Part shown: positions 1 through 60,695 of the stretch, one piece after another
How positions within the stretch are numbered: position 1 is the first letter of the stretch
Layout of the letters: each line of letters starts with the position of its first letter
Source: Candidatus Eiseniibacteriota bacterium
GTDB taxonomy: Bacteria; Eisenbacteria; RBG-16-71-46; DASYSL01
Reading direction: 5' to 3'
Assembly (NCBI GenBank): GCA_036003365.1
Contig: DASYSL010000004.1
Location: forward strand, 1-60,695
Length of the DNA: 60,695 bases
Translations under genes and position numbers: made by a program
The notes under the pieces: generated by a model
Told to the model about the DNA's origin: nothing
What the model saw: the letters and a program-made list of their open reading frames with translations, nothing else
The model's database searches: none

Positions 1-1
1 G

Positions 2-38697: not shown

Positions 38698-38711
38698 GCA
38701 CGTTGCCGTGC

Positions 38712-38823: not shown

Positions 38824-38835
38824 TCGCTCAGAAGA

Positions 38836-40137: not shown

Positions 40138-40224
40138 GGGCGACCTCCTCGTTTTTCGCGGCTGAGAGAGCCGTACCCGGGGCGGGCGGCCCATTCAGTC
40201 TAGCAGGGGATGGCGGCGGCTCCG

Positions 40225-40611: not shown

Positions 40612-40750
40612 GCGAACACCTCGACCCTGGCATCGGCTGATTCACGGAATTCTCAAGCAAAGTCTGCTGTCCCCTGGCCCGAGCTCAGGTCCCGGGAGAT
40701 CATGTTCGTCGATGCGACGTGCCAGTCGCCTGCGCCAGGGGTCAATCGCC

Positions 40751-41458: not shown

Positions 41459-41467
41459 CTGGGCGCC

Positions 41468-43372: not shown

Positions 43373-43549
43373 GGGTGAAGTTCTCCTTTAGAGGAGTATC
43401 GGCCCGGAGGCCTCTCGGGACCACCCTGGCCGACGCAGCGTGGGAACTGCCTTGCACTTGGCGGGCTCACCTTAGCAGGTCTTGGGCTCCGCCGCCGGTT
43501 CGGGGCTAGAATGGTGGGGACGGCCCTGGTGTCCATTTTGCCGTACCGC

Positions 43550-44905: not shown

Positions 44906-44908
44906 CGC

Positions 44909-45904: not shown

Positions 45905-45941
45905 GAAACTGCCGTTTTCACTTGAATTTTCGCGGCTCCGG

Positions 45942-45955
45942 TGTAATCGTTTTCA
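45942..45955. promoter_or_regulatory. LacI-family-type operator (TGTAATCGTTTTCA) overlapping a promoter-like TTGAAT-16-TAATCG
   Basis: The site has a central CG and TGTAA/TTxCA half-sites, fitting the generic TGnAAnCGnTTnCA pattern. It is a near-copy of the site at 47199. It lies about 245 nt upstream of the 46200 gene. Confidence 0.5.
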
Positions 45956-46199: not shown

Positions 46200-47045
46200 A
46201 TGAAGCGGATTCGCTACAACAGTCTGGCGCTCGCCGTCATCGCGATCTGTAGCGTGATCGCGGTCGGCGCCGGTGTCGCGCATGCGACGCCTGTGATCAA
46301 CGGCGCCATCATGTACCCACGTGTCTTCAACGACTGTCCGGTCAGCACCTTGAATCCCGGACCAGTCGCTTACCCGGCTTTGATCCATATCGACGAGCAC
46401 GATCTCATCTGCGCGGGCGGAGCCAACCTGCACGTGTGGGATCTCTCGAGCGACGGCGGCGCCTCGTCGGCGATCTTCAACAACAAGGACGCCTTCACGA
46501 TCTCCGCCACCGTGACGCTGCACCGGGCGCCAAGCACCGTGGCTGAAGAGGTAGGCCTGCGCGTGTGCCCGTGGTGGGATCACAATGCCAACGGCTTCTT
46601 CAACATGCGGCTTCCGGACGGCGAGATCGCCTGCTTCGGCGGCGTGCTACCGTTCTTCTCCTTTACGGGCACCTTCGGCGTCCTTGCGCAGTCCGACGTG
46701 CCGGCCCGTCAGACGATCATCTACAACCCTCACTGCAACACGAAGGATGATCCGGCCACCATCGAGTACATCCTGGATCTCCCTCAGGGTCACTTCGACA
46801 GCGGTCCTCTGCCCTTCACCAATTGCACGGCGGGCGAGGAGGCCCATGGCTGCTACGGCATCATGGACGACGCGCGCGTCGGCGGCCGGTTGCAGAACGA
46901 CATGTTCCCGCCGTTCGCGGGCGACCCCGCGGCCAATAACGGCGTGGATTACAACGACATCGTCTACACGATCAACCAGCCTTCGGATTGCCCGGTGCCG
47001 ACGAACAACTCGACCTGGGGCAACATCAAGGCTCAGTACCGGTAG
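46200..47045 (+). CDS. Secreted Cys-rich protein of unknown function
   Basis: ATG 46200 is preceded by GGAAAGGGGAAG. Signal peptide (AVGAGVAHA). The protein has ten cysteines and no recognisable domain. GC is lower than in the neighbours. The C-terminal tail reads STWGNIKAQYR. Confidence 0.55.
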   Translation: MKRIRYNSLALAVIAICSVIAVGAGVAHATPVINGAIMYPRVFNDCPVSTLNPGPVAYPALIHIDEHDLICAGGANLHVWDLSSDGGASSAIFNNKDAFTISATVTLHRAPSTVAEEVGLRVCPWWDHNANGFFNMRLPDGEIACFGGVLPFFSFTGTFGVLAQSDVPARQTIIYNPHCNTKDDPATIEYILDLPQGHFDSGPLPFTNCTAGEEAHGCYGIMDDARVGGRLQNDMFPPFAGDPAANNGVDYNDIVYTINQPSDCPVPTNNSTWGNIKAQYR

Positions 47046-47100
47046 GCTTTCGGGCGGGAGACGCGGAAGCGTTCGGTCTCACGCCTTCGGTTATCCGCCG

Positions 47101-47124
47101 CCCCACGGAGCTCGCTCCGTGGGG
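47101..47124 (+). terminator. Perfect 10-bp GC hairpin after the 46200 gene (no U-tract)
   Basis: ccccacggag-ctcg-ctccgtgggg lies 56 nt after the stop codon. Confidence 0.4.
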
Positions 47125-47198
47125 CGTGCGGTTCCTGATCCGGCTTCACCCGAGGGCCTAGTTCAGCGGTCCTAGACTTGACAGGGTGTCGTGCCGCG

Positions 47199-47212
47199 CG
47201 TAATCGTTTACA
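47199..47212. promoter_or_regulatory. LacI-family-type operator (CGTAATCGTTTACA) overlapping a promoter-like TTGACA-17-TAATCG
   Basis: TTGACA lies at 47178-47183 and TAATCG at 47201-47206. The operator shares 12 of 14 positions with the 45942 site. It lies about 90 nt upstream of the LacI-family gene. Confidence 0.5.
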
Positions 47213-47300
47213 TCGCGAGCCGGGACCGGCCACGAGGTTCGCCCTTCCTCGGTCCTTCCCTCACCCGGCGGTCAGCGACACTCAGAGGAAAGAAGCGTTC

Positions 47301-48332
47301 ATGGCGACCATCAAGGACGTGGCTCGCGATGCGGGCGTCTCGGTGGCGACGGTGTCGCGTGTCTTCAACGACAGCGGCCTGGTCAGCGAGGACACGCGTC
47401 GCACGGTGCTCGATGTGGCGGCCAAGCTCAACTACTGGCCGAACGGCGTCGCCCGCAGCCTGATCACGAGCCGCACCCACGCGCTCGGCGTCCTCTTGCC
47501 CGATCTCGCGGGCGAGTTCTTTTCTGAGGTCATTCGCGGCATCGACCTGGCGGCACGCGCCCGCGGCCTGCACCTGCTCGTTTCGAGCTCGCACGCCGAC
47601 ACGCGCGAGCTGGTGAGCGCGTTGCGCTCGCTGCGCGGGCGCATCGACGGGCTCATCGTCATGGCGCCCGACGTCGACGCGCCCTCGGCCATCCGCGCGA
47701 GCGCCGGCGACTTTCCCATCGTGCTCGTCGATCCCGGCTACGGGGTCGAGGAGTTCGACACGGTCTCCATTGCCAACCATGAAGGCGCGCAGGCCGTGGT
47801 GCGCCATCTGCTGTCGCTCGGGCATCGCCGCGTCGCCACCGTGACGGGTCCGCTCAGCAACATCGACGCCGAGCAGCGGCTGGCGGGCTATCACGCCGCC
47901 ATGCGCGCGGCCGGCGGCGAGATCGCGTCCGATCTCGTGATCCACGGCGATTTCTCGGAGGCTTCGGGACGCGCGGCGGGCGCGGCCATCGCCGCCATGC
48001 AGCCGCGTCCGACCGCGGTCTTCGCCGCCAACGACTACATGGCCGCCGGCGTCATGGCGGCACTCGGCGAAGCCGGCGTGCGCGTGCCCCAGGACGTCGC
48101 GGTCGCCGGTTTCGACGACATTCCCATCGCCCGTTACCTGACACCGCCTTTGACCACAGTCCACGTGGGGCTCCTGGAGCTCGGCGAGCGAGCAGTGAGC
48201 CGCCTCGTCGAGATCCAGAGCGGCCGCGATTCCGCGGTGCCCCAGCACGATGTTCTGTCCACCACCCTGGTGGTACGCCGCTCTTGCGGCGCGCCCTCGG
48301 GCGAGCCCCTGATGGGGAAGGCCCGATCGTGA
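47301..48332 (+). CDS. LacI family transcriptional regulator
   Basis: ATG 47301. MATIKDVARDAGVSVATVSRVFN is the HTH. A periplasmic-binding-protein-like sugar-binding core follows (VPQDVAVAGFDD). Confidence 0.9.
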   Translation: MATIKDVARDAGVSVATVSRVFNDSGLVSEDTRRTVLDVAAKLNYWPNGVARSLITSRTHALGVLLPDLAGEFFSEVIRGIDLAARARGLHLLVSSSHADTRELVSALRSLRGRIDGLIVMAPDVDAPSAIRASAGDFPIVLVDPGYGVEEFDTVSIANHEGAQAVVRHLLSLGHRRVATVTGPLSNIDAEQRLAGYHAAMRAAGGEIASDLVIHGDFSEASGRAAGAAIAAMQPRPTAVFAANDYMAAGVMAALGEAGVRVPQDVAVAGFDDIPIARYLTPPLTTVHVGLLELGERAVSRLVEIQSGRDSAVPQHDVLSTTLVVRRSCGAPSGEPLMGKARS

Positions 48333-48343
48333 GGAGGATTCAC

Positions 48344-50260
48344 ATGAGAGCAGTGCGAATCGCCGCCCTCGTGCTGTGCGCGGGGCTCCTCGGAGCTTCG
48401 CTGGCGCATGCGCAAGGAGCGCTCAAGAACTCGATCTGGGCGCGCTCGCTGAACGGTGCGTCGATCACGCTCGACGGCGTGCTGGACGAGCCACAGTGGG
48501 CGCAGGCCGAGTCAGTCTTGATTCGTTATGGAGTCGACAACGGCGTTCCGGGAAGCGGCTGGAAGCCCGAGGGCGGCCTGCCGCTACACGACTCGACGTA
48601 CTGTTGGGTCAAGTTCCTGGTCGACACCGCCAACAACCAGCTCTATCTCGGCTTCACCGTGCGGGACAGCTCGGTCGGCGGCTCGATCAACTTCAACGAG
48701 ATGGACGGCTTCCTGATGAATCTCAAGGATCACTCGAACGCGGCGCGACCCGCGCCCTCGGGCGAGTACCAGTATTCGTGGTGGGATCCGGGCGACACCT
48801 GCTGTGCCATGAATGCCGGGAAGCTGCCTCACGTCGTTTCCGGGCGCTGGGGTAATGCGGACCCCTCCAACACCCCGCGCACGCCGGAGCAGATCGCCGC
48901 TTTCGACGGCCGTACCCGGGTGCGTGGCATCTCCAACAGCGACGCCGTGCCCGACACGGGATACACGACCGAGCTGCGCATCGATCTGACCTCCGTCGGT
49001 GTGAACGCCGCCAATCCCAACGGCGACATCGTGGAGTGGAACTGCTCGGTCTACGATGCCGACTGGGAGTGGCTGAGCCCGCCCAATCCGTTCCGCGCCG
49101 GATACAACCGCGGATGGCTGGAAGACCCGTGGGGCAATGTCGCGTGGTACGACGAGGTGCGCATTCACGTGAAGCCGAGCGTGACGGTGAGCTCGGGTCC
49201 CGTGCCGGCGCTCGACCCGGAGATCCGCGTGCCCAACGGGCAGAACTTCGCGACGCCGGTGATCGATGGCCATCTCACCGACGCGATATGGGCGGCCGCG
49301 CCGTTCTTCGATATCCAATATGGCAACGATGCCTTGCGCGCCAGCTATCCGGGCGCCGGGCCCTGGCGCTCGGGTCAGTTCCAGCCCACGGTGAATGGCG
49401 GCCAGCAGTTCGTGGCCGACCCCGGGAGCGCGCGCTTCTACTACTTCTTCAAGGCCGACTCGCTCTTCCTGGGCTTCGACGTGAACGACGCGTACGTCGG
49501 CAATCATCCGGTGGAAGACCGGATGGACGGCTTCATCGTGAGCTTGAACGACTACACGGCGCGCAATCCGGATCACAATCTCGCGCCGCGGCGTCTCGAG
49601 TTCAGGGTGGGGACGGGCGGAGCCACGGTGAAGCAAGGCTATCTGCCTCTCTTGACCGACACGCTGCTCACCTCGGCCTGCGTCCTTGCGCTCAAGCCGG
49701 GGACGACCGTCGACACCACCGGCTTCGACACCGACCAGGGCTACACGGCGGAGATGAAGATCGACCTGACCAAGATCGGCTACCCGCATGGTCTGGCCGA
49801 CGGGACGCTGTGGCTCGGAGTCGACTATTACGACGGCGACACCTTCACCGACGCGACGCAGAGCTACGCCACGCGCACCTGGTTCTTCCGCGAGAGCGAC
49901 GCCTGGTGCTGCCCGGTGTGGGCCTACATGGACCCGGGCAACCTCGTGGTCGCGGTAGGAGACCAGGTGCCGAAGTACGGACAGTTCGCGCTCTTGGGCA
50001 GCTATCCGAACCCGGCCGTGTCGCAGGCCACGATCCGCTATTCGCTGCCAGAGGCGAGCGACGTGATGCTGGAGGTTTATGATGTGAAAGGCAGGCTCGT
50101 CGATCGCCGGGATCTGGGCCGTATGCAGGCCGGAGTGCAGCAGACCCCGTTGCGCTACGAAGGTCTCTCCGGCATCCACTTCTACCGGTTGAGCTTCATC
50201 AATCCCGTGACGGGCCACCAAACCGCGACTTTGGCCGGCAAGGTGATGCTCATTCAGTGA
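48344..50260 (+). CDS. Secreted protein with two CBM9/DOMON-like modules and a T9SS/FlgD-Ig-like C-terminal domain
   Basis: ATG 48344 is preceded by GAGGAGG. Signal peptide (ASLAHAQ). LDGVLDEPQWAQAE and IDGHLTDAIWAAAP are DG.LDE..W..A-type starts of CBM9-like modules. The C-terminus reads YPNPAVSQATIRYSL...VYDVKGRLV...KVMLIQ. Confidence 0.65.
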   Translation: MRAVRIAALVLCAGLLGASLAHAQGALKNSIWARSLNGASITLDGVLDEPQWAQAESVLIRYGVDNGVPGSGWKPEGGLPLHDSTYCWVKFLVDTANNQLYLGFTVRDSSVGGSINFNEMDGFLMNLKDHSNAARPAPSGEYQYSWWDPGDTCCAMNAGKLPHVVSGRWGNADPSNTPRTPEQIAAFDGRTRVRGISNSDAVPDTGYTTELRIDLTSVGVNAANPNGDIVEWNCSVYDADWEWLSPPNPFRAGYNRGWLEDPWGNVAWYDEVRIHVKPSVTVSSGPVPALDPEIRVPNGQNFATPVIDGHLTDAIWAAAPFFDIQYGNDALRASYPGAGPWRSGQFQPTVNGGQQFVADPGSARFYYFFKADSLFLGFDVNDAYVGNHPVEDRMDGFIVSLNDYTARNPDHNLAPRRLEFRVGTGGATVKQGYLPLLTDTLLTSACVLALKPGTTVDTTGFDTDQGYTAEMKIDLTKIGYPHGLADGTLWLGVDYYDGDTFTDATQSYATRTWFFRESDAWCCPVWAYMDPGNLVVAVGDQVPKYGQFALLGSYPNPAVSQATIRYSLPEASDVMLEVYDVKGRLVDRRDLGRMQAGVQQTPLRYEGLSGIHFYRLSFINPVTGHQTATLAGKVMLIQ

Positions 50261-50287
50261 TCGTTTCGATCTTCAAGACCCTCGCAG

Positions 50288-50309
50288 GGGGCGGGCCGCG
50301 GCCCGCCCC
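50288..50309 (+). terminator. GC hairpin (10-bp stem) between the CBM9-like gene and the receptor gene; possible attenuator
   Basis: ggggcgggcc-gc-ggcccgcccc followed by ttgtc. It lies 28 nt after the stop and 17 nt before the next ATG. Confidence 0.35.
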
Positions 50310-50325
50310 TTGTCAGGTCTCCCGC

Positions 50326-52950
50326 ATGGATCGATCGCTGCGCTCGGGCGCGATCTTCCTTCTCGCCGGAATCATCCTTTTGCTGCTCGGCTCTCCGGCC
50401 ATCGCCGGCACCACGGGCAAGCTCTCCGGGCGTGTCACCGACGCCAAGAAAGCCCCGCTCCCCGGCGTCACGATCTTGCTCGTCGGGCAAAGGCTCGGCG
50501 CCTTCACCGACACCGACGGCCGCTATTCGATTCTCAACATTCCGGCCGGCACCTACGACGTGAAGTTCCAGATCCTGGGTTACCGGCCGGTGACGATCAC
50601 CGGCGTGCAGGTGAACGCCGACAACACCACCTCGGCCAATCTCTCGATGGAAGAAGCGCCCGTCGAGATGAAGGAGATCGTGGTCAGCGGCAAGAGCCCG
50701 GTGGTGGACGTGCATCAGACGAGCACCATTGCCACCGTGAACAAGGAGCAGATTGCCACGCTCCCGGTGCAGGAGCTGAGCGAGATCGTGAACCTGCAGG
50801 CGGGTGTGGTCGACGGCCACTTCCGCGGCGGCCGCCTCGGTGAGGTGCAGTACCAGGTCGACGGCATCTCGATGAACAACGCCTACGACAACACGGCGAG
50901 CCTCAAGCTCGACCGCTCGCTGCTCGAGGAAGTGCAGGTCATCAGCGGCACCTTCGACGCCGAGTACGGGCAGGCGATGAGCGGGGTGGTGAACGCGGTG
51001 CTCAAGCGGGGAAGCAAGAACCTGCACTGGGACGGCGAGGCGTTCTCGGGCGGGTTCGTCTATCCCGGGCACGCCGAGGAGCGCAATCTCGAGTACGCTT
51101 TCCGGCCCACGGGCGTGCGCAACTTCCAGCTCAGCTTGACCGGTCCCACACCACAGAAGCAGACGCTCTTCCTGGCCAACTTGCAGCGCTACTACTTCGA
51201 CGACTTCGTCTACGGCAACCGCGTCTTCAATCCCGACGGCACCTTCGGCGACAATCACGAAGTGCCGCTTGGCCAGACGCGGCAGTGGTCGGGCGTAGCG
51301 AAGATCTCGAACTCATCGATCCACAACGTCGAGGCCAGCTACCAGGCGATCTTCAACACCATCGACGGCCAGCGCACCGATTACTTGTTCCGCTATGACC
51401 CCGACGGGCTCTCCAAGCAGCACACGTACTCGATCGTGCACGGCCTCGATTGGACGCACACGCTGAGCAAGAAGTCGTTCTACAGCGTCGGCCTGCGCCA
51501 GAACTACTTCAACTACGACGATCACGTGTACGAGGACCTCTACGATACCCTCTACGACCGCGCGGGTCCGCCGCACGGAAATCCCGCGCTCGGGACCGAC
51601 AATCCCTACGACGCCGGCGTGTCGCTCGCCCGCTTCCACCAGAACACCAACGCTCTGATCTTCAAGGGTTCGTTCGTGACCCAGATCACCAACGATCACC
51701 AGGTGAAGGCGGGGGGCGAATTCCAGCTTCCGAGGCTCGAGTTCGGCAACCTGGGCTACCTGATTCCCACCACGATCGCGGGCCGCGAAACGCTGCAACG
51801 GGTCGAGAGTGATCCCGCGAAGCAGCTGCCCGGGCTGGCCGTCTACCATCCGATTCAAGGCGCCGCCTATGCGCAGGAGCAGACGGAGTGGAACGATCTG
51901 AACCTGCGCGTCGGTCTGCGCCTCGACTACTTCGACGCGCGCAGCAGCGTCCCGAGCAATCTCTCGAATCCGGGCAACACCATCGAGGGCGCGCCGCCGT
52001 CACATGCGGTGGCGACGACCAAAAAGGTGACGCTCTCGCCGCGCATCGGCGTGTCCTATCCGGTGAATACGCGCGCCTCACTCTACTTCGCGTACGGGCA
52101 TTTCTATCAATTACCGCCCTTGGGCACGATCTTCACCAACGCCGACTACTCGGTGCTCGCCAACATCTCGGCCGGAGAGGACCTGGCCACGAGCAAGATT
52201 GGCACCATCGGCAATCCCGACATCAAGCCCGAGCGCACGGTTCAGTACCAGGCGGGTTACAAGCAGGCGATCAACGAGAATCTGGGGGCCGATGTCACCG
52301 TGTTCTACAAGGACATCCGTGATCTTCTCGGCACCGAGATCCTCTCGACATACAACGACGCCGAGTATCCGCGTCTCGCCAACGTCGACTTCGGCAACGT
52401 GCTTGGCGTCACGGTCGCCTTCGATCTACGGCCCAAGGGCTTGCTGGGAGGCAGCGTCGATTACACGTTCCAGCTCGCGGAAGGAAATACCAGCGATCCG
52501 CACGAGACCGCGACCCGCGCCGAAGCCGGGCTCGACGCCAACCCGCGCCTCATTCCTTTCAACTGGGATCAGCGGCACACGCTCAATCTCACGGGCACGC
52601 TCGCCAAGCCGGCGAACTGGAGCGCGAGCGCGATCTTCCGCTTCGGGAGCGGCCAGCCGTACACGCCGGCCGGCGAGTTCAGCGGCGGCACGAGCGAGAA
52701 CTCGGGACGCAAGCCGAACGCCTATCTGCTGGACCTGCGCGGGGAGAAATCGCTGCGGGCGACGGGTTTCCAGATGGGCCTGTTCGCGCGTATCTTCAAC
52801 GTATTCGACACCCGCTACTTCAACGGCACGGTTTACGACGACACCGGCAGTCCCTACTACACACTCAACCCCAACGCTCCGCCCGATCCGACCCGCTATT
52901 ACACGCCGCGTCGCATCGAGGTCGGGCTGCGCGCCGCAGCACTCAAATAG
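50326..52950 (+). CDS. TonB-dependent outer-membrane receptor with carboxypeptidase-regulatory-like N-domain
   Basis: ATG 50326. Signal peptide. GKLSGRVTDAKKAPLPGVTILLVG...GRYSILNIPAGTYDV is the CarboxypepD_reg-like domain. Plug motifs: LPVQELSEIVNLQAGV, VDGISMNN, FDAEYGQAMSGVVN. A long beta-barrel region follows. Confidence 0.9.
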   Translation: MDRSLRSGAIFLLAGIILLLLGSPAIAGTTGKLSGRVTDAKKAPLPGVTILLVGQRLGAFTDTDGRYSILNIPAGTYDVKFQILGYRPVTITGVQVNADNTTSANLSMEEAPVEMKEIVVSGKSPVVDVHQTSTIATVNKEQIATLPVQELSEIVNLQAGVVDGHFRGGRLGEVQYQVDGISMNNAYDNTASLKLDRSLLEEVQVISGTFDAEYGQAMSGVVNAVLKRGSKNLHWDGEAFSGGFVYPGHAEERNLEYAFRPTGVRNFQLSLTGPTPQKQTLFLANLQRYYFDDFVYGNRVFNPDGTFGDNHEVPLGQTRQWSGVAKISNSSIHNVEASYQAIFNTIDGQRTDYLFRYDPDGLSKQHTYSIVHGLDWTHTLSKKSFYSVGLRQNYFNYDDHVYEDLYDTLYDRAGPPHGNPALGTDNPYDAGVSLARFHQNTNALIFKGSFVTQITNDHQVKAGGEFQLPRLEFGNLGYLIPTTIAGRETLQRVESDPAKQLPGLAVYHPIQGAAYAQEQTEWNDLNLRVGLRLDYFDARSSVPSNLSNPGNTIEGAPPSHAVATTKKVTLSPRIGVSYPVNTRASLYFAYGHFYQLPPLGTIFTNADYSVLANISAGEDLATSKIGTIGNPDIKPERTVQYQAGYKQAINENLGADVTVFYKDIRDLLGTEILSTYNDAEYPRLANVDFGNVLGVTVAFDLRPKGLLGGSVDYTFQLAEGNTSDPHETATRAEAGLDANPRLIPFNWDQRHTLNLTGTLAKPANWSASAIFRFGSGQPYTPAGEFSGGTSENSGRKPNAYLLDLRGEKSLRATGFQMGLFARIFNVFDTRYFNGTVYDDTGSPYYTLNPNAPPDPTRYYTPRRIEVGLRAAALK

Positions 52951-52958
52951 GAGGTAGG

Positions 52959-55900
52959 TTGTTCCGTTCGCCCCGTGCCCGCTTGCTCGCCTTCACCTTC
53001 TCGGTCTTGGCGGCGCCTGCGTTGATGGTGCTGTCGGCGCGGGCGCAGTCGCCGCCGCCCGACAAACGGGGGCGCATCGACGCCGAGCGTGTCGGGCAGC
53101 ACGACGCGAACCGCATCCGCACCCTGTTCTGGAACTTCGGCATGGTGGGCGATTACCCGTCCGATCCCGGAAACGTGGATCTGACCACGTTCCACTCCGT
53201 CGAGGTGCCCAAGGGCTCGGGCATGAACTACTCCGACGGCATCACGCCCTTCGTGCTGGCCAAGATCAACCAGACCGACGGCTCCGAGGCCTACATCATG
53301 GAGACGGGCTACCGCGAGCGGCAGATCGCGAGCCCGATCACCAACCAGATCATGCGCTTCGAGCCGCGCCCCGGGTTCTTCCAGCCCGATCCCAACGTCA
53401 ATCGCGGGCGCTCGCCGGCCATCAGCAGCGATCCGCGGACGTGGCCGGACGCCTGGCCGGACAAGGCGAACGATCCCGACGATCCGGGCTGGCATGACAG
53501 CTGGGACGGCTACTTCGGCAAACGCGCCTCGGCCGATCAGGAAAGCTTCACGGTCATGGACGACAACTTCTACGACGCGTGGCTCTACAACCCCGACAGC
53601 ACCGACCACACGCGGCGCGGTCTCGGGCTGCGCGTCGAGGTGCGCGGGTTCCAGTGGGCGAACCCGCAGGCCGGGAACGTCATCTTCTGGCATTACGACA
53701 TCACGAACGAAGGCACGACCGACTACAACGACAACATCCTCTTCGGCCTTTACATGGACTCGGGCGTGGGCGGCTCGCAGATCGGCTGCGATCCGGGCCC
53801 CTACGAGTCCGACGACGACAACGCCTTCTTCGACCGCTCGAGCGGGCTCAATCTCGTGTACACGTGGGACAACTACGGACACGGGGTCGATCTCATCAGC
53901 AAGTGCGACAAGACCGGCTATCTCGGCTACGCGTATCTCGAGACGCCCGGAAATGCATTCGACCACGTCGATGACGATGGCGACGGCATCACCGACGAGG
54001 CGCGTGACAGCGGCCCGGGGGAAGTCATCACCGGCCAGGAGAACATCCGAGCCTACGTCAGCACGCATTACGATCTGACCAAGTTCGAGGCGTTCTACGG
54101 CCCCCTGGAGCAGCGCCCGGCCTACAAGAATGGCCGCTGGTGGACGGGCGACGAGGACATGGACTGGAACCAACCCCTGGACGACGTGGGCGCCGACGGC
54201 GTGGCGGGCACGCACGACACGGGCGAGGGCGACGGCATGCCCACGGCGGGCGAGCCCAACTTCGATCAGACCGATCTCAACGAGTCGGACCAGATCGGCC
54301 TCACCGGCTTCAAGATGAACCGCATTCGCTCCGCCGTGCCGGGCGGGCCGACGGACAACATCCTGTTCTACACCGAGAGCCAGGACTGGCCCGCCAAGCT
54401 CTATGCCCAGTTCACCGATCCCATCACCAGCAACCGTTTCGATCCACCGCTCGCCCAGAACTACAACATCGGATTCCTCTTCGCCTCGGGACCGTTCTCG
54501 CTCAAGGCGGGCAAGCACGAGCGCTTCAGCCTGGCCCTCGCCTTCGGCGGCGACCTGGACGAGCTGCGCGAGAACGTGAAGACCGTGCAGCAGATCTACA
54601 ACGCGAACTATCAGTTCGCGGTGCCGCCCAAGGCGCCCACCGTGACGGCGGAGCCGGGCGACGGCCGTGTGACGCTGTCGTGGACCGACGACTCGGAGCG
54701 CAGCGTCGACCCGGTGAGCAGCATCTTCGATTTCGAGGGTTACCGGATCTATCGCTCCACCGACCCGGAGTTCACCGATCCGCAGGTGATCTCAAACGGT
54801 CAGGGAACCGGGCCGCAGCCCGGCAATGGCAAGCCCTTGGCGCAGTTCGATCTCGTGGACGGCAAGAAGGGCTTCTCGAAGCGCACGATCAACGGCGTCG
54901 CCTACTGGCTGGGCTCGGACACCGGCATCACCCACACGTTCACCGACACGACAGCCGTGAACGGGCAGCAGTACTACTACGCGGTGACCGCCTACGACTT
55001 CGGCTATGAGCCGGGAGGCGAGTCGCTCGGCTTCTATCCTTCGGAGAACGCGATCTCCGTCCAGCGCACCACGCGCGGGGGGCTCATCCTACCCAAGAAC
55101 GTGGTCGCCGCGCGGGCCAATCCACGGGTGCCGGGTTTCGTGCCGGCCCACGCCGACAGCGCCGTGCACGTGGCCGGGAACGGCACCGGACACGTCGACG
55201 TTCAGGTCGTCAATTCCGACCTCGTGCCGGATGGTCACCTGTTCACCATGCGCTTCTCCACGCCGTCTCCGGACAGCGTGCGCGCCTCGACGTACAGCTT
55301 GAAGGACAGCACGACCGGCGAGGTGCTGTTCACCAAGGGCTCCGACATCTCCGCACAAGGGATTGGCCCCGTGGGCTCGGGCCTCTTGCCCATCGTGAGC
55401 GAGCCGCTGGCTCCCTATCCCGACACGCTGCGCAGCGGATGGGACGCCGGAAGCGCGACCGACGCCAAGGTCAATGTCTCGTACCTGCAGATCCTCGATC
55501 CCAACTACAAGCGCCCCGGCTACCCCGACGATATGACGGTCACCTTCGCGGACGCCGTGGTCGACACCGGCGTGCAGATCAACCCGATCCCGGCGACACC
55601 GGCCAAGTTCTTCGTGGTCGCGCACACCGATTCGGGCGACCTGCGCTTGAAGTTCAAATTCAAGGACACCGACCACGACGGTACCCTCAGCAGCCCGAAC
55701 GACCAGATCGACATTCTCTGCCCGGCTCCGGTGAGTGTCGACTCGCAAGTTACGTGGCGGCTGCAGCTGGCGTCGACGCCGACCAAGAAGCCGCACGCCG
55801 GGGATGTGTATCAGCTCCGCCTGATCCGGCCGCTCAATGACACCGACGTGTTCACCTTCAAGACGGGTGCGGCGCGCGTCGATGCCGCACTGGCGGCGCA

Positions 55901-56219
55901 GCAATACCAGGCCGATCCGTACGTCGTGCCCAATCCCTACGTGGGTGCTGCCAGCTTCGAGCCGGCGCGCTTCGCCATCTCGGGCCGCGGCGAGCGGCGC
56001 GTGGAATTCCGGAACGTGCCGCTGAACGCGACGGTCCGGGTGTACACGGTGCGCGGCGAGCTGGTGCAGACCCTGCACCAGGATGGCGGCACGGACGGCT
56101 TCGTGGCCTGGAATCTGCGCACCAAGGACAACCTCGACCTGGCCGCGGGCTTGTACATCTATCAGGTGGAAGCGCCGGGACAGCGCACGTTCACCGGAAA
56201 GATGGCGGTGATCAAATGA
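52959..56219 (+). CDS. 1086-aa secreted protein of unknown function with Asp-rich Ca-binding-like motifs, an FN3-like module and a T9SS/FlgD-Ig-like C-terminal domain
   Basis: TTG 52959 lies after AGGAGG. Signal peptide (MVLSARAQ). Features: DHVDDDGDGITDEARD, DDVGADGVAGTHDTGEGDGMPTAGEPNFDQTDLNESD, and PKAPTVTAEPGDGRVTLSWTDD...YRIYRS (FN3-like). The C-terminus reads VPNPY...VRVYTVRGELV...GLYIYQV...KMAVIK. Confidence 0.7.
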   Translation: MFRSPRARLLAFTFSVLAAPALMVLSARAQSPPPDKRGRIDAERVGQHDANRIRTLFWNFGMVGDYPSDPGNVDLTTFHSVEVPKGSGMNYSDGITPFVLAKINQTDGSEAYIMETGYRERQIASPITNQIMRFEPRPGFFQPDPNVNRGRSPAISSDPRTWPDAWPDKANDPDDPGWHDSWDGYFGKRASADQESFTVMDDNFYDAWLYNPDSTDHTRRGLGLRVEVRGFQWANPQAGNVIFWHYDITNEGTTDYNDNILFGLYMDSGVGGSQIGCDPGPYESDDDNAFFDRSSGLNLVYTWDNYGHGVDLISKCDKTGYLGYAYLETPGNAFDHVDDDGDGITDEARDSGPGEVITGQENIRAYVSTHYDLTKFEAFYGPLEQRPAYKNGRWWTGDEDMDWNQPLDDVGADGVAGTHDTGEGDGMPTAGEPNFDQTDLNESDQIGLTGFKMNRIRSAVPGGPTDNILFYTESQDWPAKLYAQFTDPITSNRFDPPLAQNYNIGFLFASGPFSLKAGKHERFSLALAFGGDLDELRENVKTVQQIYNANYQFAVPPKAPTVTAEPGDGRVTLSWTDDSERSVDPVSSIFDFEGYRIYRSTDPEFTDPQVISNGQGTGPQPGNGKPLAQFDLVDGKKGFSKRTINGVAYWLGSDTGITHTFTDTTAVNGQQYYYAVTAYDFGYEPGGESLGFYPSENAISVQRTTRGGLILPKNVVAARANPRVPGFVPAHADSAVHVAGNGTGHVDVQVVNSDLVPDGHLFTMRFSTPSPDSVRASTYSLKDSTTGEVLFTKGSDISAQGIGPVGSGLLPIVSEPLAPYPDTLRSGWDAGSATDAKVNVSYLQILDPNYKRPGYPDDMTVTFADAVVDTGVQINPIPATPAKFFVVAHTDSGDLRLKFKFKDTDHDGTLSSPNDQIDILCPAPVSVDSQVTWRLQLASTPTKKPHAGDVYQLRLIRPLNDTDVFTFKTGAARVDAALAAQQYQADPYVVPNPYVGAASFEPARFAISGRGERRVEFRNVPLNATVRVYTVRGELVQTLHQDGGTDGFVAWNLRTKDNLDLAAGLYIYQVEAPGQRTFTGKMAVIK

Positions 56220-57235
56220 GATCCGCGCGCGCGCTGCTTCTGGGATTCGTCCTCACGGCCACTGCCTCCGCGGCCCACGCGCAATCCAAGACCGGCACGG
56301 CCTTCGGCGACTTCCTGCTCATCGAGCCGAGCGCGCGCGCCACCGGCATGGGCAACGCCGGCGTGACGCTGCTCGACGACCAGCAGGGGGTGTACTACAA
56401 CCCGGCGGCGATCGCGGAGATCGAGCAGTACGGCGTGGCGTTTTCGCACAGCGCCTGGCTCGCCGACATCAACTACAACTACGCCGGCGTGGGCGTACCG
56501 ATGGGCAAGATCGGCAACGCCTACTTCAGCTTGACGGCCCTGTCGTCGGGCGACATCGAGGTGCGCACGGTCGCCCAGCCGCTGGGAACGGGCGAGTTCT
56601 TCCACGTCACCGACGTCGCGGCCGGCCTGGGCTACGGGCTGCGCGTGACCGACCGCTTCTCGGCCGGCCTCGAGGCCAGCTTCGTGCAAGAGACGATTTG
56701 GCACACGTCGGCGAGTGCCGTGGTCTTCAACATGGGCACGGTCTATCGCCTCTCGGAAGAAGGCCTGCACCTGGGCGCCAGCATTTCCAACTTCGGCACC
56801 GATGCCAGCTTCAGCGGCCGCGATCTCGGCGTCACTTTCGATCAGGACCCGAACGTCAACGGCGACAACGGCACGTTGCCGGCTTCCCAGCTCACGGACG
56901 CGTTCCCCTTGCCGGTGCTGTTTCGCGTGGGCCTGAGCTTGCCGCGCAAGATCGGCCCCAATGGTCAGCTCCTCATGGCCGTGGACGCGTTTCACCCCGC
57001 GGACAACACGGAGAGCGTGAGCCTGGGCACGGAGTACGCGTACCGCAACGCGTTTGCGGTGCGCGCCGGCTACCAGAACCTGTTCCAGAAGGACTCGGAG
57101 GTCGGCCTCACGCTGGGCGCCGGCCTCAAGGGCAAGCTCGGCGGCCACGGCAACGGCTACGCGATCGATTACGCGTGGGCCGACCAGGGTCGATTGAACG
57201 ACACGCATCGCATCACGGTGGCGTTACACTTCTAG
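56216..57235 (+). CDS. PorV/PorQ-family-like outer-membrane beta-barrel
   Basis: ATG 56216 overlaps the upstream stop (ATGA). Signal peptide (ASAAHAQ). GDFLLIEPSARATGMGNAGVTLLDDQQGVYYNPAAI is the characteristic N-terminal motif. Amphipathic strands alternate and the terminal residue is Phe (VALHF). Confidence 0.7.
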   Translation: MRSARALLLGFVLTATASAAHAQSKTGTAFGDFLLIEPSARATGMGNAGVTLLDDQQGVYYNPAAIAEIEQYGVAFSHSAWLADINYNYAGVGVPMGKIGNAYFSLTALSSGDIEVRTVAQPLGTGEFFHVTDVAAGLGYGLRVTDRFSAGLEASFVQETIWHTSASAVVFNMGTVYRLSEEGLHLGASISNFGTDASFSGRDLGVTFDQDPNVNGDNGTLPASQLTDAFPLPVLFRVGLSLPRKIGPNGQLLMAVDAFHPADNTESVSLGTEYAYRNAFAVRAGYQNLFQKDSEVGLTLGAGLKGKLGGHGNGYAIDYAWADQGRLNDTHRITVALHF

Positions 57236-57277
57236 AAGAGACACCCGCGGCCTCGGGGCCGGGACGGAAAGGCATCC

Positions 57278-58903
57278 ATGCGAACGATTCGATCGAAGAC
57301 TCTCTGGGTCTTGCTGGCGACGGTCTGTCTGGCCGCGCCGGCGCGCGCCCAGCTCTCCGACGGCGAGATCTTGGACAACATCCAGCACGCCGCCTTCAAT
57401 TACTTCTGGAACGAGGCGAACCCGACCTTGGGCATGATCAAGGACCGCAGCACCATGGGCTCGCCGTGCAGCATCGCCGCCGTCGGCTTCGGGCTTTCCT
57501 CCATCTGCGTGGGCGTGGACCACGGCTGGGTGACGCGTGACGACGCGCGACAGCGCGTGTACAACACGCTGCACACCTTCTACACCTGGCCGCAGGGCAC
57601 GGCCACCTCGAACACCATTGGCTATCGCGGCTTCTTCTATCACTTCCTCGACATGAACTCGGGCTTCCGCATGCCGGGCTGGGATCCGGAGCTCTCCACC
57701 ATCGACACTGCTCTGCTCATGGCCGGCGTGCTCGACGCGGGCGCCTATTTCAACGATCCCGACGACACGACGGAAGTGGCCATCGCCACCATGGCCGACT
57801 CTCTCTACGACCGAATGGACTGGACGTTCTTCCGGAATGGAACCCAGCGTCTCTACATGGGCTGGAAGCCGGGCGGCGGGGGCTTCAGCGGCTTCGGGCA
57901 GTGGCAGGGCTACAACGAGGCCATGATCCTGGAGATCGAGGCGCTCGGATCGACCACGTTCAAGGTGGACACGACGTTGTGGAATCCGGGCTGGACCTCG
58001 ACGTACAGCTTCGGCAACCAGTACGGCTACAACTACATCATCTTCCCGCCGCTCTTCGGCCATCAGTACTCGCACTGCTGGATCGACTTCCGCAACATCC
58101 AGGATGCCTACATGCGCAATCCGACGCATGGCATCACCTACGCCGAGAACTCGCGGCGGGCCACCTTGGCGCAGCACGCCTACTGCATCGCTGATCCGGG
58201 GCACTGGGTGGGGTACAGCGATTCGCTCTGGGGGATCACGGCGGGTGACGATCCCAACGTGGGCTACACGGCGCGTGGCGCGCCGCCGCCGCAGACCGAC
58301 AACGGCACCTTGTCGCCCACGGCGGTCGCGGGCTCTTTGCCGTTCGCGCCCGAGGTCTGCATGCCGACGCTCCGCAACATGTACAACAACTACCCGCTGC
58401 TCTGGGGCACGTACGGGTTCAAGGACGCGTTCAATCTGAGCAAGGTGCCGGCCTGGTACGACACCGACTTCCTCGGCATCGACCAGGGCCCGATCGTGAT
58501 GATGATCGAGAATTACACCGGCGAGGGCATCTGGAAACGCTTCATGCAGATCCCCGCGATCCAAAACGGCCTCACGCGCGCCGGTTTCCTGCCGGCGAGC
58601 AATACCACCGCCGTGGGCTCGCCGCCGGCGCTCACGAGCGCGGTCGCGCTCGCGGCCAGTGAGCCGAGTCCGATCACGGGCCGCGGCATTCTGCGCTTTC
58701 GTCTCGCGCAGGCGGGACGCGTGCGGCTCGTGCTCTACGACGCGCGCGGGCGGCAGGAGCGCGTGCTGATCGACGACGAGCGGCCGGCAGGCGAGGGCTC
58801 GGTGGCTCTCGATGCCGCGGGCCTGCGCCAGGGCGTGTATCTCGCGCGCATCGAGACGGCGGCCGGCTCGGCAGCGCGCAAAATCGTGGTGCTGGATCGC
58901 TGA
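57278..58903 (+). CDS. DUF3131/GH144-like glycoside hydrolase (endo-beta-1,2-glucanase family) with T9SS/FlgD-Ig-like C-terminal domain
   Basis: Signal peptide (AAPARAQ). Motifs: FNYFWNEANPTLGMIKDRS, GFFYHFLD, ELSTIDTALLMAGVL, GYNEAMILE, FGHQYSHCWIDFRN, WGITAGDDPNVGY, YGFKDAFN, LGIDQGPIVMMIENY. The C-terminus reads PSPITGRGILRFRL...LYDARGR...GVYLARI...KIVVLDR. Confidence 0.8.
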   Translation: MRTIRSKTLWVLLATVCLAAPARAQLSDGEILDNIQHAAFNYFWNEANPTLGMIKDRSTMGSPCSIAAVGFGLSSICVGVDHGWVTRDDARQRVYNTLHTFYTWPQGTATSNTIGYRGFFYHFLDMNSGFRMPGWDPELSTIDTALLMAGVLDAGAYFNDPDDTTEVAIATMADSLYDRMDWTFFRNGTQRLYMGWKPGGGGFSGFGQWQGYNEAMILEIEALGSTTFKVDTTLWNPGWTSTYSFGNQYGYNYIIFPPLFGHQYSHCWIDFRNIQDAYMRNPTHGITYAENSRRATLAQHAYCIADPGHWVGYSDSLWGITAGDDPNVGYTARGAPPPQTDNGTLSPTAVAGSLPFAPEVCMPTLRNMYNNYPLLWGTYGFKDAFNLSKVPAWYDTDFLGIDQGPIVMMIENYTGEGIWKRFMQIPAIQNGLTRAGFLPASNTTAVGSPPALTSAVALAASEPSPITGRGILRFRLAQAGRVRLVLYDARGRQERVLIDDERPAGEGSVALDAAGLRQGVYLARIETAAGSAARKIVVLDR

Positions 58904-58910
58904 GCGTGTG

Positions 58911-60695
58911 ATGGGCTCCGCCTCCGTCACTCAGGCCGCGCATCGCACGCGCAAACGACTCGCGATCTTTCCGGCGGGCGTGCTTTCGAACGGCGATTAC
59001 GTCTCCGTCGTCACCGCGGCGGGCACCGGTGGATCGTACTGGCGCGGTGACGCGCTCACGCGCTGGCGGCCCGATCGCACGGCCGACACGGACGGCGTTC
59101 TCTTCTGGCTGCGCGAGCGCGACCGCGGCGTCATGCGGACCTTGACGCGCTTCCCGTTCGGGGGCGAGGCCGAGCGCGAGCAGGTGTCGTGGCGCCCCGG
59201 CGGGTTCACGTTCGAGCGCGTCGTCGACGACCTCGAGACGCAAATCGAGATCGCTGTCGCGCCCGACCATCCCCTCGAGCTGCGCCGCGTGCGCTTGAAG
59301 AACCTGCTCGAGAAGCCGCGCGCGCTCGAGCTCGCGGCCACCATGGACATCGTGCTGCAGCGCGCCGAGGCCGACGCCTCGCATCCCGCCTTCTCCAAGC
59401 TCTTCGTCGAGACCGCCTGGGACGCCGGTCGTGGCGCGCTCGTGGCGGGCCGGCGGCCGCGCGATCGCGATCAGCGCCATCCCTGTCTCGCCGCCGCGCT
59501 GCACGGCCCTGGCGCTCTCGAGTTCGAGACCGACCGGGCACTCCTGTGGGGGCGCGGAAACTTCTCGGCTGCGCCCGAGCTGTTGCAGCGTGGGACCGCA
59601 TTGCCGGGCACGACCGGCAACGTGCTCGATCCGCTCTTCTGCTTGCGCCGCCGCTTCGACCTCGAGCCCGGTGGCAGCGTGAGCTTCACGCTGGCGCTGG
59701 CGGCGGGGGAGAGCTGGCAGGGCGCGCTCGAAGCTCTCGCCACGGCCCGGACCGCGAGTGCTGTCGACTCGTTCTTCGCCGCGGCCGAAGCGCACGAGTT
59801 CGGCTTGCTCGATCGCTTCGGCCTCGACGAGAAGACCGCGGGGGGCGCGCAGTCGTCGTGGGTGGCGCAGCAATTCGGTGTGCCGGGACTGCCGCGTGGC
59901 GCGGGCTTGCCGGACTGGAAGTCGATCCGGCGTTTCGGCGCGCAGCCGGGCGAGCCCTTCGTGTTCTTCCACGCCAAGAAGTCCGGCTCGGCGCGCGTCG
60001 CCGAGGAGCTCTTGCGCCGCCACGAGTACCTGCGCGCCAAAGGGCTGCCGTCGAAGCTCATCCTCGTGTACGAGACCATCGCGCGCTCGCCGTGGATCGA
60101 GAAGGCAGCGGAGACGATGGGCGCTTGGGTGGGAACGGCGGACGCGGCCGGCGTGGCCGCGCTCGAAGCCGCCGCGGCCTTCGTGGCGCGCGACGAAGCG
60201 TTGGACATCGACGGCTGGCGCGACGATCCCGAGTGGGAGACGCCGCGAGCCGCGAGAGTGGCGGCGCCCGAGCTGGTGCCGCCCGCCGACGAGGTGCTCG
60301 CGGAGTTCAACGGCTACGGCGGGTTCTCCGCCGAAGGCGACGAGTACGTGGTGCGCTTCGAGCGTGAGCCCTCGGGCGCCCTGCGCCTGCCGCCGCAGCC
60401 GTGGGTGAACGTGATCGCGCGCGAGGGCTTCGGCTTTCTCGCGAGCGAGACGGGAAGCCTCAGCACCTGGAGCCAGAACAGCCGCGAGCACCGGCTCACG
60501 CCGTGGTCGAACGATCCCGTCCTCGACCCGCACGGCGAAGCCTTCTACGTGCGCGACGAGGAGAGCGGCGCCTTCTGGTCGGCGACGCCGGGGCCAGCAC
60601 CGGGCCCGGGCCGCTACGAGACGCGGCACGGCATCGGCTACAGCCGCTATCGCTACACGGGGCGCGACATCGAGCACGAGCTGCGTCTGTTCCTG
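58911..60695 (+). CDS. GH94-like protein (1,2-beta-oligoglucan phosphorylase / cyclic-beta-1,2-glucan-synthase phosphorylase-region type); 3' end beyond the window
   Basis: This ORF is not in the supplied track. The frame is open for 595 codons from ATG 58911 (or GTG 58908) to the window end, with G/C at nearly every third position. Motifs: GVLSNGDYVSVVTAAGTGGSYWRGDALTRWRPDRTADTDGVLFWLRERD and FNGYGGFSAEGDEYVV...PQPWVNVIAREGFGFLASETGSLSTWSQNSREHRLTPWSNDPVLDPHGEAFYVRDEESGAFWS. No signal peptide is present. Confidence 0.8.
   Translation, partial: MGSASVTQAAHRTRKRLAIFPAGVLSNGDYVSVVTAAGTGGSYWRGDALTRWRPDRTADTDGVLFWLRERDRGVMRTLTRFPFGGEAEREQVSWRPGGFTFERVVDDLETQIEIAVAPDHPLELRRVRLKNLLEKPRALELAATMDIVLQRAEADASHPAFSKLFVETAWDAGRGALVAGRRPRDRDQRHPCLAAALHGPGALEFETDRALLWGRGNFSAAPELLQRGTALPGTTGNVLDPLFCLRRRFDLEPGGSVSFTLALAAGESWQGALEALATARTASAVDSFFAAAEAHEFGLLDRFGLDEKTAGGAQSSWVAQQFGVPGLPRGAGLPDWKSIRRFGAQPGEPFVFFHAKKSGSARVAEELLRRHEYLRAKGLPSKLILVYETIARSPWIEKAAETMGAWVGTADAAGVAALEAAAAFVARDEALDIDGWRDDPEWETPRAARVAAPELVPPADEVLAEFNGYGGFSAEGDEYVVRFEREPSGALRLPPQPWVNVIAREGFGFLASETGSLSTWSQNSREHRLTPWSNDPVLDPHGEAFYVRDEESGAFWSATPGPAPGPGRYETRHGIGYSRYRYTGRDIEHELRLFL

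Follow-up and report, generated by a model that had tools for sequence, protein, structure and literature searches.

The stretch of DNA analyzed here, called the window in the following, comprises positions 1 to 60,695 of the plus strand of contig DASYSL010000004.1 of Candidatus Eiseniibacteriota (GCA_036003365.1), and it has a G+C content of 63-70%. At its end it carries a gene locus with a LacI-family repressor, which probably encodes a pathway for the utilization of beta-1,2-glucan, as far as can be judged from the sequence. The evidence consists of family assignments, conserved catalytic residues, operators, and a strict linkage of the genes in related genomes. In addition, four genes of the locus are reused as a module beside other enzymes in paralogous loci. 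They encode a secreted protein with CBM9-like domains (P2), a TonB-dependent transporter (TBDT), a secreted protein of 1086 aa (P4), and an outer-membrane barrel of the PorV/PorQ family, and the last three might together form a complex for nutrient capture.

Gene Layout and Extent of the Locus

An earlier reading of the sequence alone (the original prediction) had described seven co-directional genes, and the layout of the open reading frames confirmed them. All seven are on the plus strand and extend from 47301 to the end of the window. The features of the locus are as follows; T9SS stands for type IX secretion system.

45923-45955, plus strand: promoter-like region (TTGAAT, 16 nt, TAATCG; hexamers recognized by eye) with a LacI-type operator, TGTAATCGTTTTCA, at 45942-45955
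46200-47045, plus strand: gene for a secreted, Cys-rich protein of 281 aa with the C-terminus STWGNIKAQYR (from the translation and tblastn homologs)
47178-47212, plus strand: promoter-like region (TTGACA, 17 nt, TAATCG) with a LacI-type operator, CGTAATCGTTTACA, at 47199-47212
47301-48332, plus strand: LacI-family repressor (PF00356, PF13377, PF00532)
48344-50260, plus strand: P2, secreted, consisting of a tandem pair of CBM9/DOMON-like domains and a C-terminal T9SS type A domain
50326-52950, plus strand: TBDT with an N-terminal CarboxypepD_reg domain (PF00593, PF07715, PF13620)
52959-56219, plus strand: P4, secreted multi-domain beta protein of 1086 aa with a TTG start
56216-57235, plus strand: outer-membrane barrel of the PorV/PorQ family, 14-strand type (NF033709)
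57278-58903, plus strand: GH144 endo-beta-1,2-glucanase homolog with a signal peptide and a T9SS C-terminal domain (PF10091)
58911-60695, plus strand: GH94, the first 595 aa of a signal-less protein of 1280 aa, interrupted by the end of the window (PF06165)

The intergenic gaps were small, as had been noted, and the measured range was -4 to 65 nt instead of 0 to 66 nt. The negative value is due to an ATGA overlap between the end of P4 and the start of the barrel gene, which makes them a translationally coupled pair. The Shine-Dalgarno sequence GAGGAGG was present at 48331-48337, at the position given earlier, and AGGAGG was found 6 nt before the TTG start of P4. Reading by eye revealed N-terminal signal peptides on five of the locus proteins and none on GH94.

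The 281-aa gene at 46200-47045 and the two LacI-type operators are part of the locus, and therefore the locus starts near 45920 and not at 47178, where its beginning had been placed. No SusD-like domain was detected among the locus proteins in the hidden Markov model (HMM) search of the window and of the continuation contig described below. The view that the locus is not a classical polysaccharide utilization locus (PUL) was thus upheld.

GH144, GH94 and the Linkage of the Substrate

The assignments of LacI, TBDT, PorV/PorQ-like barrel, GH144 and GH94 were all confirmed by HMM searches, and the matches of the two enzymes were strong. The GH144 protein matched PF10091 with 257.1 bits (cutoff 27, E = 1.7e-76) over residues 208-426. 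Its closest solved relative was XcSGL of Xanthomonas (8xul, E = 2e-96), and the next was the Chitinophaga enzyme CpSGL (5gzh, 6e-50). The Glu of GYNE, the Phe of PLFGHQYSH and the Tyr of GYTARG were aligned with E239, F286 and Y367 of XcSGL; the entry 8xul is the E239Q mutant, and its chain numbering is offset by 14. The Asp in STIDTALL (IDTALL motif) was also conserved; this acidic residue occupies the site proposed for the general base and was equated with E142 of CpSGL by an offset estimate. In the residue definitions for the SGL clan E239 is the general acid, which is listed together with Phe286, Tyr367 and the acidic E142 (PMC12102758). The alignment with characterized GH144 enzymes thus agreed with the original assignment.

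The GH94 gene was completed with a continuation contig (JGI Ga0376050_0000719, in the following L001), which was found by an exact-protein look-up of GH144. The overlap with the end of the window is 5,590 bases long and contains 4 mismatches, and the contig extends further downstream. It encodes the full GH94 protein of 1280 aa (PF06165 and PF17167), a second GH144 protein of 473 aa, a family-1 solute-binding protein, two ATP-binding cassette (ABC) permeases, and a protein of 1063 aa with CBM32 (F5/8 type C) and a weak GH15-like (alpha/alpha)6 region. The second GH144 protein has a short hydrophobic N-terminal leader with a Cys and was lipoprotein-like by eye. It also matched PF10091, and its closest solved relatives were the same two, with an E value of 5.8e-154 for XcSGL (8xul).

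In the window part of GH94, the PF06165 supersandwich was matched in two stretches (E = 3e-87). The match to Cgs of A. tumefaciens (8rf9), a synthase of cyclic beta-1,2-glucan, had 826 bits and covered the Cgs residues 1543-1919 and 2016-2783, while cellobiose and chitobiose phosphorylases reached only about 250 bits. The motif GDWND is found at residues 953-957 of the L001 protein, and it is identical in Cgs. Its last residue, D957, aligns with residue 483 of the cellobiose phosphorylase of C. thermocellum (3qde), which is presumably the catalytic Asp. The catalytic Asp is conserved across GH94 (PMC3960220). The alignment check that had been suggested for GH94 was therefore positive for Cgs and for the catalytic residue, but not for the Lachnoclostridium phosphorylase LpSOGP, to which no sequence match was detectable. 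LpSOGP is only 16-18% identical to other GH94 proteins, and the layout with two N-domains is common to LpSOGP and the GH94 protein of the locus.

The binding protein and the two permeases on L001 bear out the downstream transporter genes that had been predicted. The best solved match of the binding protein was 3uor of Xanthomonas, which is annotated merely as a sugar-binding protein, and the second-best was Lin1841 with 217 bits, compared with about 114 bits or less for maltose binders. Thus four independent proteins, namely the two GH144 proteins, the binding protein and GH94, point to beta-1,2-linked glucose.

Three further observations concern the enzymes in this and in related loci. First, GH94 occurs in two architectures. 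The form of 1280 aa, which resembles the phosphorylase part of Cgs and has two N-domains and an inserted Rossmann-like segment, is encoded at L001 3806-7648. The other form has about 790-815 aa and one supersandwich domain, and its catalytic part is 35-39% identical to the long form; examples are L008 9719-12106, L087 14358-16730 and L088 12562-14940. Second, a CBM32 protein of about 1,065 aa recurs in the loci (L001 12104-13798, partial; full-length at L008 15133-18348 and L091 18538-21729). It has a hydrophobic N-terminal leader, which was read as a signal peptide by eye, and a weak GH15/rhamnosidase-like (alpha/alpha)6 region, and it may be an uncharacterized enzyme acting on beta-1,2-glucan. 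Third, a GH1 gene adjoins the orthologous locus in the complete Eisenbacteria chromosome OY970342.1 (L002 3896-5245, minus strand). Its placement recalls the GH1 beta-glucosidase that is associated with beta-1,2-glucan in Streptomyces griseus (PMC12369401).

LacI, Its Operators and the 281-aa Protein

The regulator consists of an N-terminal helix-turn-helix domain (PF00356) and a domain resembling periplasmic binding proteins (PF13377). Its best NCBIfam matches were of the RbsR and PurR types, each under the equivalog cutoff. The LacI-type palindrome was found at only two sites in the 60.7-kb window, while 0.11 sites were expected from shuffles, and both sites fall in upstream regions of the locus. 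The operator at 47199 overlaps the -10 hexamer of the TTGACA promoter-like site, about 90 nt 5' of lacI, and the operator at 45942 is similarly placed 5' of the 281-aa gene.

The same palindrome was found 5' of LacI or P2 in the majority of orthologous loci. In 1.6 Mb of related loci there were 87 perfect sites of the form TGnAAnCGnTTnCA, a palindromic consensus that is taken here to be the LacI/GalR operator form. Most of them were located just 5' of LacI, and in loci in which LacI is encoded elsewhere they were mostly located just 5' of P2. The distance of perfect TGTAAnCGnTTACA sites from LacI was about 60-250 nt, mostly about 60-120 nt. This conservation implies an autoregulated operon, i.e., the locus would be controlled by its own LacI protein. 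A generic scan for promoters and terminators performed no better than on shuffles. A G+C-rich hairpin (CCGCCCCACGGAGCTCGCTCCGTGGGGCG) without a T-run, which the terminator scan did not call, follows the 281-aa gene at 47097-47125 and may separate two transcription units.

The 281-aa protein itself had no Pfam or NCBIfam match. Homologs with 32-44% identity were detected by tblastn in 44 comparison loci, usually just after GH144, and in some of them (L049, L005, L002) they are encoded in two to three tandem copies.

Conservation of Gene Order

A species-level scan with one genome per species revealed at least 478 places that encode P4-type proteins. The neighbors were counted at the best 80, ranked by P4 similarity, using tblastn with all locus proteins, and the denominators given below are the loci with enough flanking DNA among these 80 genomes. 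The order LacI, P2, TBDT, P4, PorV/PorQ-like barrel and GH144 was kept in about 80 genomes, so that the conserved synteny proposed for relatives was indeed found. The counts were the following.

TBDT directly 5' of P4: 61/62
Barrel directly 3' of P4: 75/75
P2 5' of P4: 58/59
GH144 3' of P4: 62/63
LacI upstream: 45/55
GH94 present: 52/65

Around this core, the positions of GH94, the ABC genes, the CBM32 protein and the second GH144 vary, and some lineages use a GH94 of about 800 aa. The record titles of the best 80 name Candidatus Eisenbacteria, Ignavibacteria, Krumholzibacteriia, KSB1, Latescibacterota, Zhuqueibacterota and Gemmatimonadota, and the closest loci are those of Candidatus Eisenbacteria (85%). 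The G+C content of the related loci ranges from 41 to 72%, showing that genuinely different lineages carry the locus; a transfer artefact or mis-binning as the source of the wide range of labels was therefore rejected. The labels of metagenome-assembled genomes are partly unreliable, and the records titled Actinokineospora, Saccharimonadaceae and Limnocylindria are probably mis-binned.

P2, the TBDT and the Barrel

P2 carries a secretion signal, as had been predicted, while the CBM9 call fell short of the threshold (PF06452, CBM9_1, 19.3 bits versus a gathering score of 23.4). The protein contains an internal duplication (E = 1e-9), and both domains start with DG.L.E..W, which is of the CBM9 type. 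The T9SS domain model TIGR04183 was passed narrowly by P2 (23.7) and by GH144 (24.5; cutoff 23). No meaningful match of P2 was found among PDB sequences. In paralogous loci, the proteins at the position of P2 carry clear CBM9 and Por_Secre_tail domains. The BLASTP match between P2 and the CBM9 protein that takes its place in an Ignavibacterium locus (L085) was limited to the C-terminal sorting domain, so the two are positional analogs and not orthologs. P2 is proposed to be a surface glycan-binding protein.

The TBDT scored 71.8 bits with the SusC/RagA model TIGR04056, far below the cutoff of 368, and only with its N-terminal region. By this profile it is placed outside the SusC/RagA subfamily, and neither SusC nor another close relative was found among PDB sequences.

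The barrel was clearly recognized by NF033709 (198.6 bits, cutoff 90) and also by PF19572 (31.5, cutoff 27), and it matched PorV of F. johnsoniae (6h3i_F) with E = 2.2e-10. With the PorQ, PorV and PorV2 equivalogs it remained below every cutoff (84.5 versus 250 for NF033710, 90.2 versus 220 for NF033711 and 55.6 versus 325 for NF052325). Judged by these scores, it is a separate subfamily that is neither PorV nor PorQ proper.

The P4 Family and Its Predicted Structure

P4 had been described as a secreted orphan of 1086 aa. Its size and its secretion signal were verified, but the term orphan does not apply. Among 5.8 billion proteins searched, more than 1,900 matched P4, and the top 120 of these were 63-93% identical. 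With phmmer, 3,708 clusters at 50% identity were retrieved from 1.84 billion representatives at E <= 1e-3, including 544 at E <= 1e-30. The related proteins typically have 1,000-1,600 aa and are 33-44% identical to P4. Neither P4 nor the related clusters contain a Pfam domain, and the P4 profile found nothing meaningful among PDB sequences (best E = 0.077, an FN3 domain).

The structure of P4 was predicted with AlphaFold2. A first model, based on close orthologs only, had a pLDDT of 58.6 and an unusable N-terminal half, and its Foldseek matches were discounted. The model from a diverse alignment had a pLDDT of 86.2 and a pTM of 0.80. Its N-terminal domain (about 40-550) is large and rich in beta structure, with calcium-type DxDxDG loops and a helical insert at 360-391 that is absent from most paralogs; it is followed by an FN3 domain and about three Ig-like sandwiches (710-985), which are the most variable part. 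Residues 993-1018 form a loop that does not vary within the family and was modelled with low confidence, as is expected of a partner-binding segment. The C-terminal beta-sandwich was modelled confidently and contains motifs as in T9SS tails, namely PNP, IYD-like and VRVYTVRGELV-like motifs and a terminal K. The invariant residues of P4 are mostly Asp, Glu, Trp and Gly. Foldseek detected no global relative in the PDB; the local matches were PorZ, PorU, FN3 arrays and the GH94 supersandwich.

Reuse of the Cassette in Paralogous Loci

The surroundings of eight paralogous P4 copies (33-44% identity) from distinct lineages (six in L085-L089, L091 and L092, and two in L090) were inspected. All eight are preceded by a TBDT of the CarboxypepD_reg type, and a barrel of the PorV family follows in seven. 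In six of the eight cases a T9SS-tailed CBM9, FlgD-Ig or PKD protein is encoded before the trio of TBDT, P4 and barrel; L090 is the only exception. The enzymes beside the trio differ:

L085, Ignavibacterium sp.: GH2, GH16, GH3 and GH5-CBM6
L086, Rosettibacter firmus: amylase, three GH3 and GH5
L089: GH26 and GH16
L087, L088, L091 and L092 (Marinimicrobia, Calditrichia and others): other GH94/GH144 sets

Thus the quartet P2-TBDT-P4-barrel is a reusable cassette, like SusC/SusD in Bacteroidia. It is a generic module that is combined with different glycoside hydrolases in many lineages of the Fibrobacteres-Chlorobi-Bacteroidetes (FCB) group outside classical Bacteroidia. On a KSB1 contig (L072), two trios lie side by side at 1-5000 and 5279-14531. 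Tandem trios are also found at L090 1-13396, where no glycoside hydrolase is nearby and a MEDS/PAS histidine kinase is encoded instead.

The trio might represent an undescribed class of outer-membrane nutrient-capture complexes and a counterpart of SusC/SusD, a view that is put forward tentatively. No description of the TBDT-P4-PorV arrangement was found in the full-text literature; subscription journals were outside its coverage, so that absence is not proven. The class might extend, with the same reservation, to Eisenbacteria, Ignavibacteria, Krumholzibacteriia, KSB1, Calditrichia, Marinimicrobia, Latescibacterota and Gemmatimonadota. Its distinguishing features could be a surface partner that is delivered by the T9SS and a non-covalent anchoring by a dedicated PorV-like barrel instead of a lipid tail, although the chances of this are put at somewhat less than even.

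Proposed Mode of Action and Alternatives

The likely explanation for the locus as a whole is a LacI-controlled system for beta-1,2-glucan or sophoro-oligosaccharides with an uptake based on P4. The following order of steps is proposed. LacI would bind the 14-bp palindromes at the two promoter regions, and a sophoro-oligosaccharide would be the probable inducer that frees it from the operators. GH144, P2 and P4 would be exported by the T9SS. At the surface, extracellular GH144 would cleave beta-1,2-glucan, be it linear or cyclic, an activity expected from its family, and P2 would bind the glycan via its two CBM9-like domains. The oligosaccharides would be imported by the non-SusC TBDT, working with P4. 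P4 would keep its C-terminal domain and would be held by the co-translated barrel via this domain and the invariant loop, as PorZ by PorQ and PorU by PorV. This view is favored by the signal peptide of P4, its C-terminal beta-sandwich with the motifs named above, weak PorU and PorZ matches of its C-terminus, the local Foldseek matches to both proteins, and the invariant loop. P4 would take on the capture or lid function that the lipoprotein SusD has in Bacteroidetes, and it would hand the oligosaccharides to the TBDT. That P4, the barrel and the TBDT form a complex of this kind is conceivable, with a likelihood a little under one half. The second GH144 would trim the chains in the periplasm, the Lin1841-type binding protein and the two ABC permeases would carry them into the cytoplasm, and the cytoplasmic GH94 would phosphorolyze them to glucose-1-phosphate, as suggested by its family and its catalytic residue. 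The extracellular cleavage, TonB-dependent uptake and cytoplasmic phosphorolysis of the original prediction are thus retained as a reading that the HMM matches, the catalytic residues and the synteny support.

Several points weigh against this proposal. The role of P4 and its presumed binding to the barrel and the TBDT were derived from gene order and weak similarities only. Its C-terminal domain scored 16.6 with TIGR04183 and is thus below the cutoff of 23, and the whole-chain TM scores of Foldseek were at most 0.15, so that a binding function is not backed by any homolog at the level of the fold. The N-terminal domain of P4 is conserved across paralogs with different substrates, which is more in keeping with a generic part in structure or docking than with a direct recognition of substrates. 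The median identity of P4 orthologs was 62%, compared with 46-52% for the outer-membrane neighbors; this is partly an artefact because the loci were chosen by P4 similarity. The trios of L090 have no carbohydrate-active enzymes (CAZymes) nearby, and the cassette may therefore serve other substrates besides glycans. Lastly, the catalytic domain of GH94 lies outside the window and was read on L001, whose overlap with the window has 4 differences in 5,590 bases, and the recovered part of the locus contains neither an ABC ATPase nor a beta-glucosidase.

The main alternative, which is considered unlikely, is that P4 and the barrel are not uptake machinery and form a locus-dedicated T9SS module, i.e., a counterpart of PorU-PorV (sortase and shuttle), for the sorting or attachment of P2 and GH144, the T9SS-tailed cargo of the locus, which it would process and anchor. 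The succession of a large T9SS-tailed protein and a PorV-like barrel mirrors the porU-porV order of P. gingivalis, in which the two genes are adjacent, and several T9SS-tailed proteins are encoded in most such loci. The C-terminus of P4 also scored weakly with PorU and PorZ models, though only its last 50-60 residues or so are PorU-like, and the local Foldseek matches to PorU and PorZ had probabilities of 0.92-0.97 but TM scores of just 0.07-0.09. P4 has no peptidase C25 domain, nor any other Pfam match, and none of its invariant residues in 89 family members is a Cys or His, which argues against a PorU-like protease; this candidate was rejected. In addition, P4 is linked to the TBDT in 61 of 62 loci and not to the cargo genes, and the tandem trios of L090 have no T9SS-tailed cargo nearby. 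A general sortase would also hardly be expected to occur as several paralogous pairs in one genome, as in L072 and L090. The same tandem or multiple copies led to the rejection of P4 and the barrel as the single housekeeping T9SS pair of the organism.

Next, the substrate could be another beta-glucan or a glycoconjugate, and the similarities of GH144, GH94 and the binding protein could reflect nothing more than family membership. GH94 also includes cellobiose, chitobiose, laminaribiose and cellodextrin phosphorylases, the best match of the binding protein (3uor) has only a general annotation, and neither the protein of 1063 aa with CBM32 and the GH15-like region nor the protein of 281 aa has an assigned specificity. 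This explanation is nevertheless very unlikely, since characterized GH144 enzymes act on beta-1,2-glucans or sophoro-oligosaccharides according to the papers cited and four separate proteins each indicate beta-1,2 linkages. [quoted passage not shown]

Finally, it is highly improbable that the trio exports or displays P4 or enzymes, similar to the Oar-type TBDT for protein secretion in Myxococcus, while sugars enter otherwise: the TBDT does not resemble SusC and lacks a close relative of solved structure, and TBDTs of relatives match the Oar-like PF25183 (fully in L003 and L004, weakly in L002 and L090), but the TBDT of the window has no PF25183 match at E <= 0.01, the secreted proteins already have T9SS signals, and the cassette is consistently flanked by a binding protein and ABC permeases, SSF/MFS symporters, periplasmic or cytoplasmic exo-enzymes and phosphorylases.

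Comparison with Known Systems

The beta-1,2-glucan pathway as such is not new, because a TBDT-based cluster without SusD has already been proposed for Ignavibacterium album (IALB_1177-1187; Kobayashi et al. 2022, PMC8861115). The SGL cluster is described there with two GH144 homologs, a GH94 homolog of the Cgs-phosphorylase-domain type, a TBDT, a Lin1841-like ABC system and a GH35 transglycosylase, and the speculated route is the same, i.e., extracellular cleavage, TBDT uptake, periplasmic trimming, ABC import and cytoplasmic phosphorolysis (PMC8861115). Its text and supplement, in the available parts, discuss no P4-like protein, no PorV-like barrel and no T9SS-tailed binding protein (PMC8861115). 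The locus of the window differs from the I. album cluster in that its recovered part has no GH35, in that its GH94 is the long form of 1280 aa and not the form of about 800 aa, and in that it belongs to a different phylum. A contig from an uncultured metagenome or metagenome-assembled genome (L091) carries a gene set of the I. album type, namely LacI, a T9SS-tailed protein, TBDT, P4, PorV, GH94, GH144, the CBM32 protein and GH35.

The PULs of Bacteroidota, including the GH144 loci of Chitinophaga pinensis and Bacteroides thetaiotaomicron, also comprise a regulator, a surface endo-enzyme, glycan-binding proteins, a CarboxypepD_reg TonB importer and downstream exo-enzymes, and they likewise have a modular core that is reused with different CAZymes. 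In contrast to these PULs, the window locus has no SusD, its TBDT fails the SusC/RagA model, its surface proteins have T9SS C-terminal domains and not lipoprotein anchors, and it contains two extra obligatory genes, i.e., those for the P4 family and the PorV/PorQ-like barrel. It is also regulated by LacI, whereas the usual PUL regulators are SusR, hybrid two-component systems and extracytoplasmic function (ECF) sigma factors.

The pairs PorU-PorV and PorZ-PorQ of P. gingivalis resemble P4 and its barrel in that a large surface protein with a T9SS-type C-terminal domain is encoded beside a barrel of the PorV/PorQ family, and the resemblance extends to local structure and HMM matches. In these pairs the surface protein is held by the barrel with an uncleaved C-terminal domain, and the same may apply to P4. 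P4 differs from PorU and PorZ by the lack of a C25 peptidase domain and of PorZ-like propellers, respectively, and the P4-barrel pair is multi-copy and always joined to a TBDT inside nutrient-uptake loci.

Two further systems share parts of the locus. The SOGP cluster of Listeria innocua (lin1839-1841) also encodes a Lin1841-type binding protein, ABC permeases and a GH94 sophoro-oligosaccharide phosphorylase, but Listeria has no outer-membrane module. The proteobacterial loci for carbohydrate utilization containing TBDTs (CUT loci), such as those of Xanthomonas around XCC2207, are TBDT-based without SusD, like the window locus, and Xanthomonas is the source of the proteins most similar to the periplasmic GH144 (8xul) and the binding protein (3uor). 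The CUT loci are not known to contain P4, PorV-like or T9SS-tailed components.

Significance of the Locus and of the P4 Family

In Proteobacteria, for example rhizobia, Brucella and Xanthomonas, beta-1,2-glucans occur both in the periplasm and as secreted polymers. The places that match the conserved locus (at least 478, with one genome per species) belong mostly to uncultured soil and sediment lineages, which suggests that these glucans are widely harvested as bacterial necromass. The locus also exposes a large unannotated family without a Pfam model, whose members appear to be obligatorily paired with a TBDT and a PorV-like barrel. If the trio is a complex, it would explain a SusD-free capture of glycans by FCB bacteria outside Bacteroidia, it would give barrels of the PorV family a role beyond protein secretion, and it would provide a simple genomic marker for polysaccharide loci that are missed by PUL predictors based on SusC/SusD.

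Neighboring Genes in the Window

Just upstream of the locus, an unrelated ergothioneine pair is located at 43511-45904, which encodes an EgtB-like protein (DinB_2 and FGE-sulfatase) and an EgtD-like protein (Methyltransf_33). A cluster for acyl-CoA metabolism occupies 21647-27027 and 34974-43387 and includes methylmalonyl-CoA mutase, an aconitase-family protein and three acyl-CoA dehydrogenases. Two of the dehydrogenases are adjacent at 34974-37481, and the third is encoded on the minus strand at 41468-43387. The same region also holds a DUF362 protein. A secreted protein with a C-terminal tail of the FlgD-Ig type is encoded at 38836-40194 on the minus strand.

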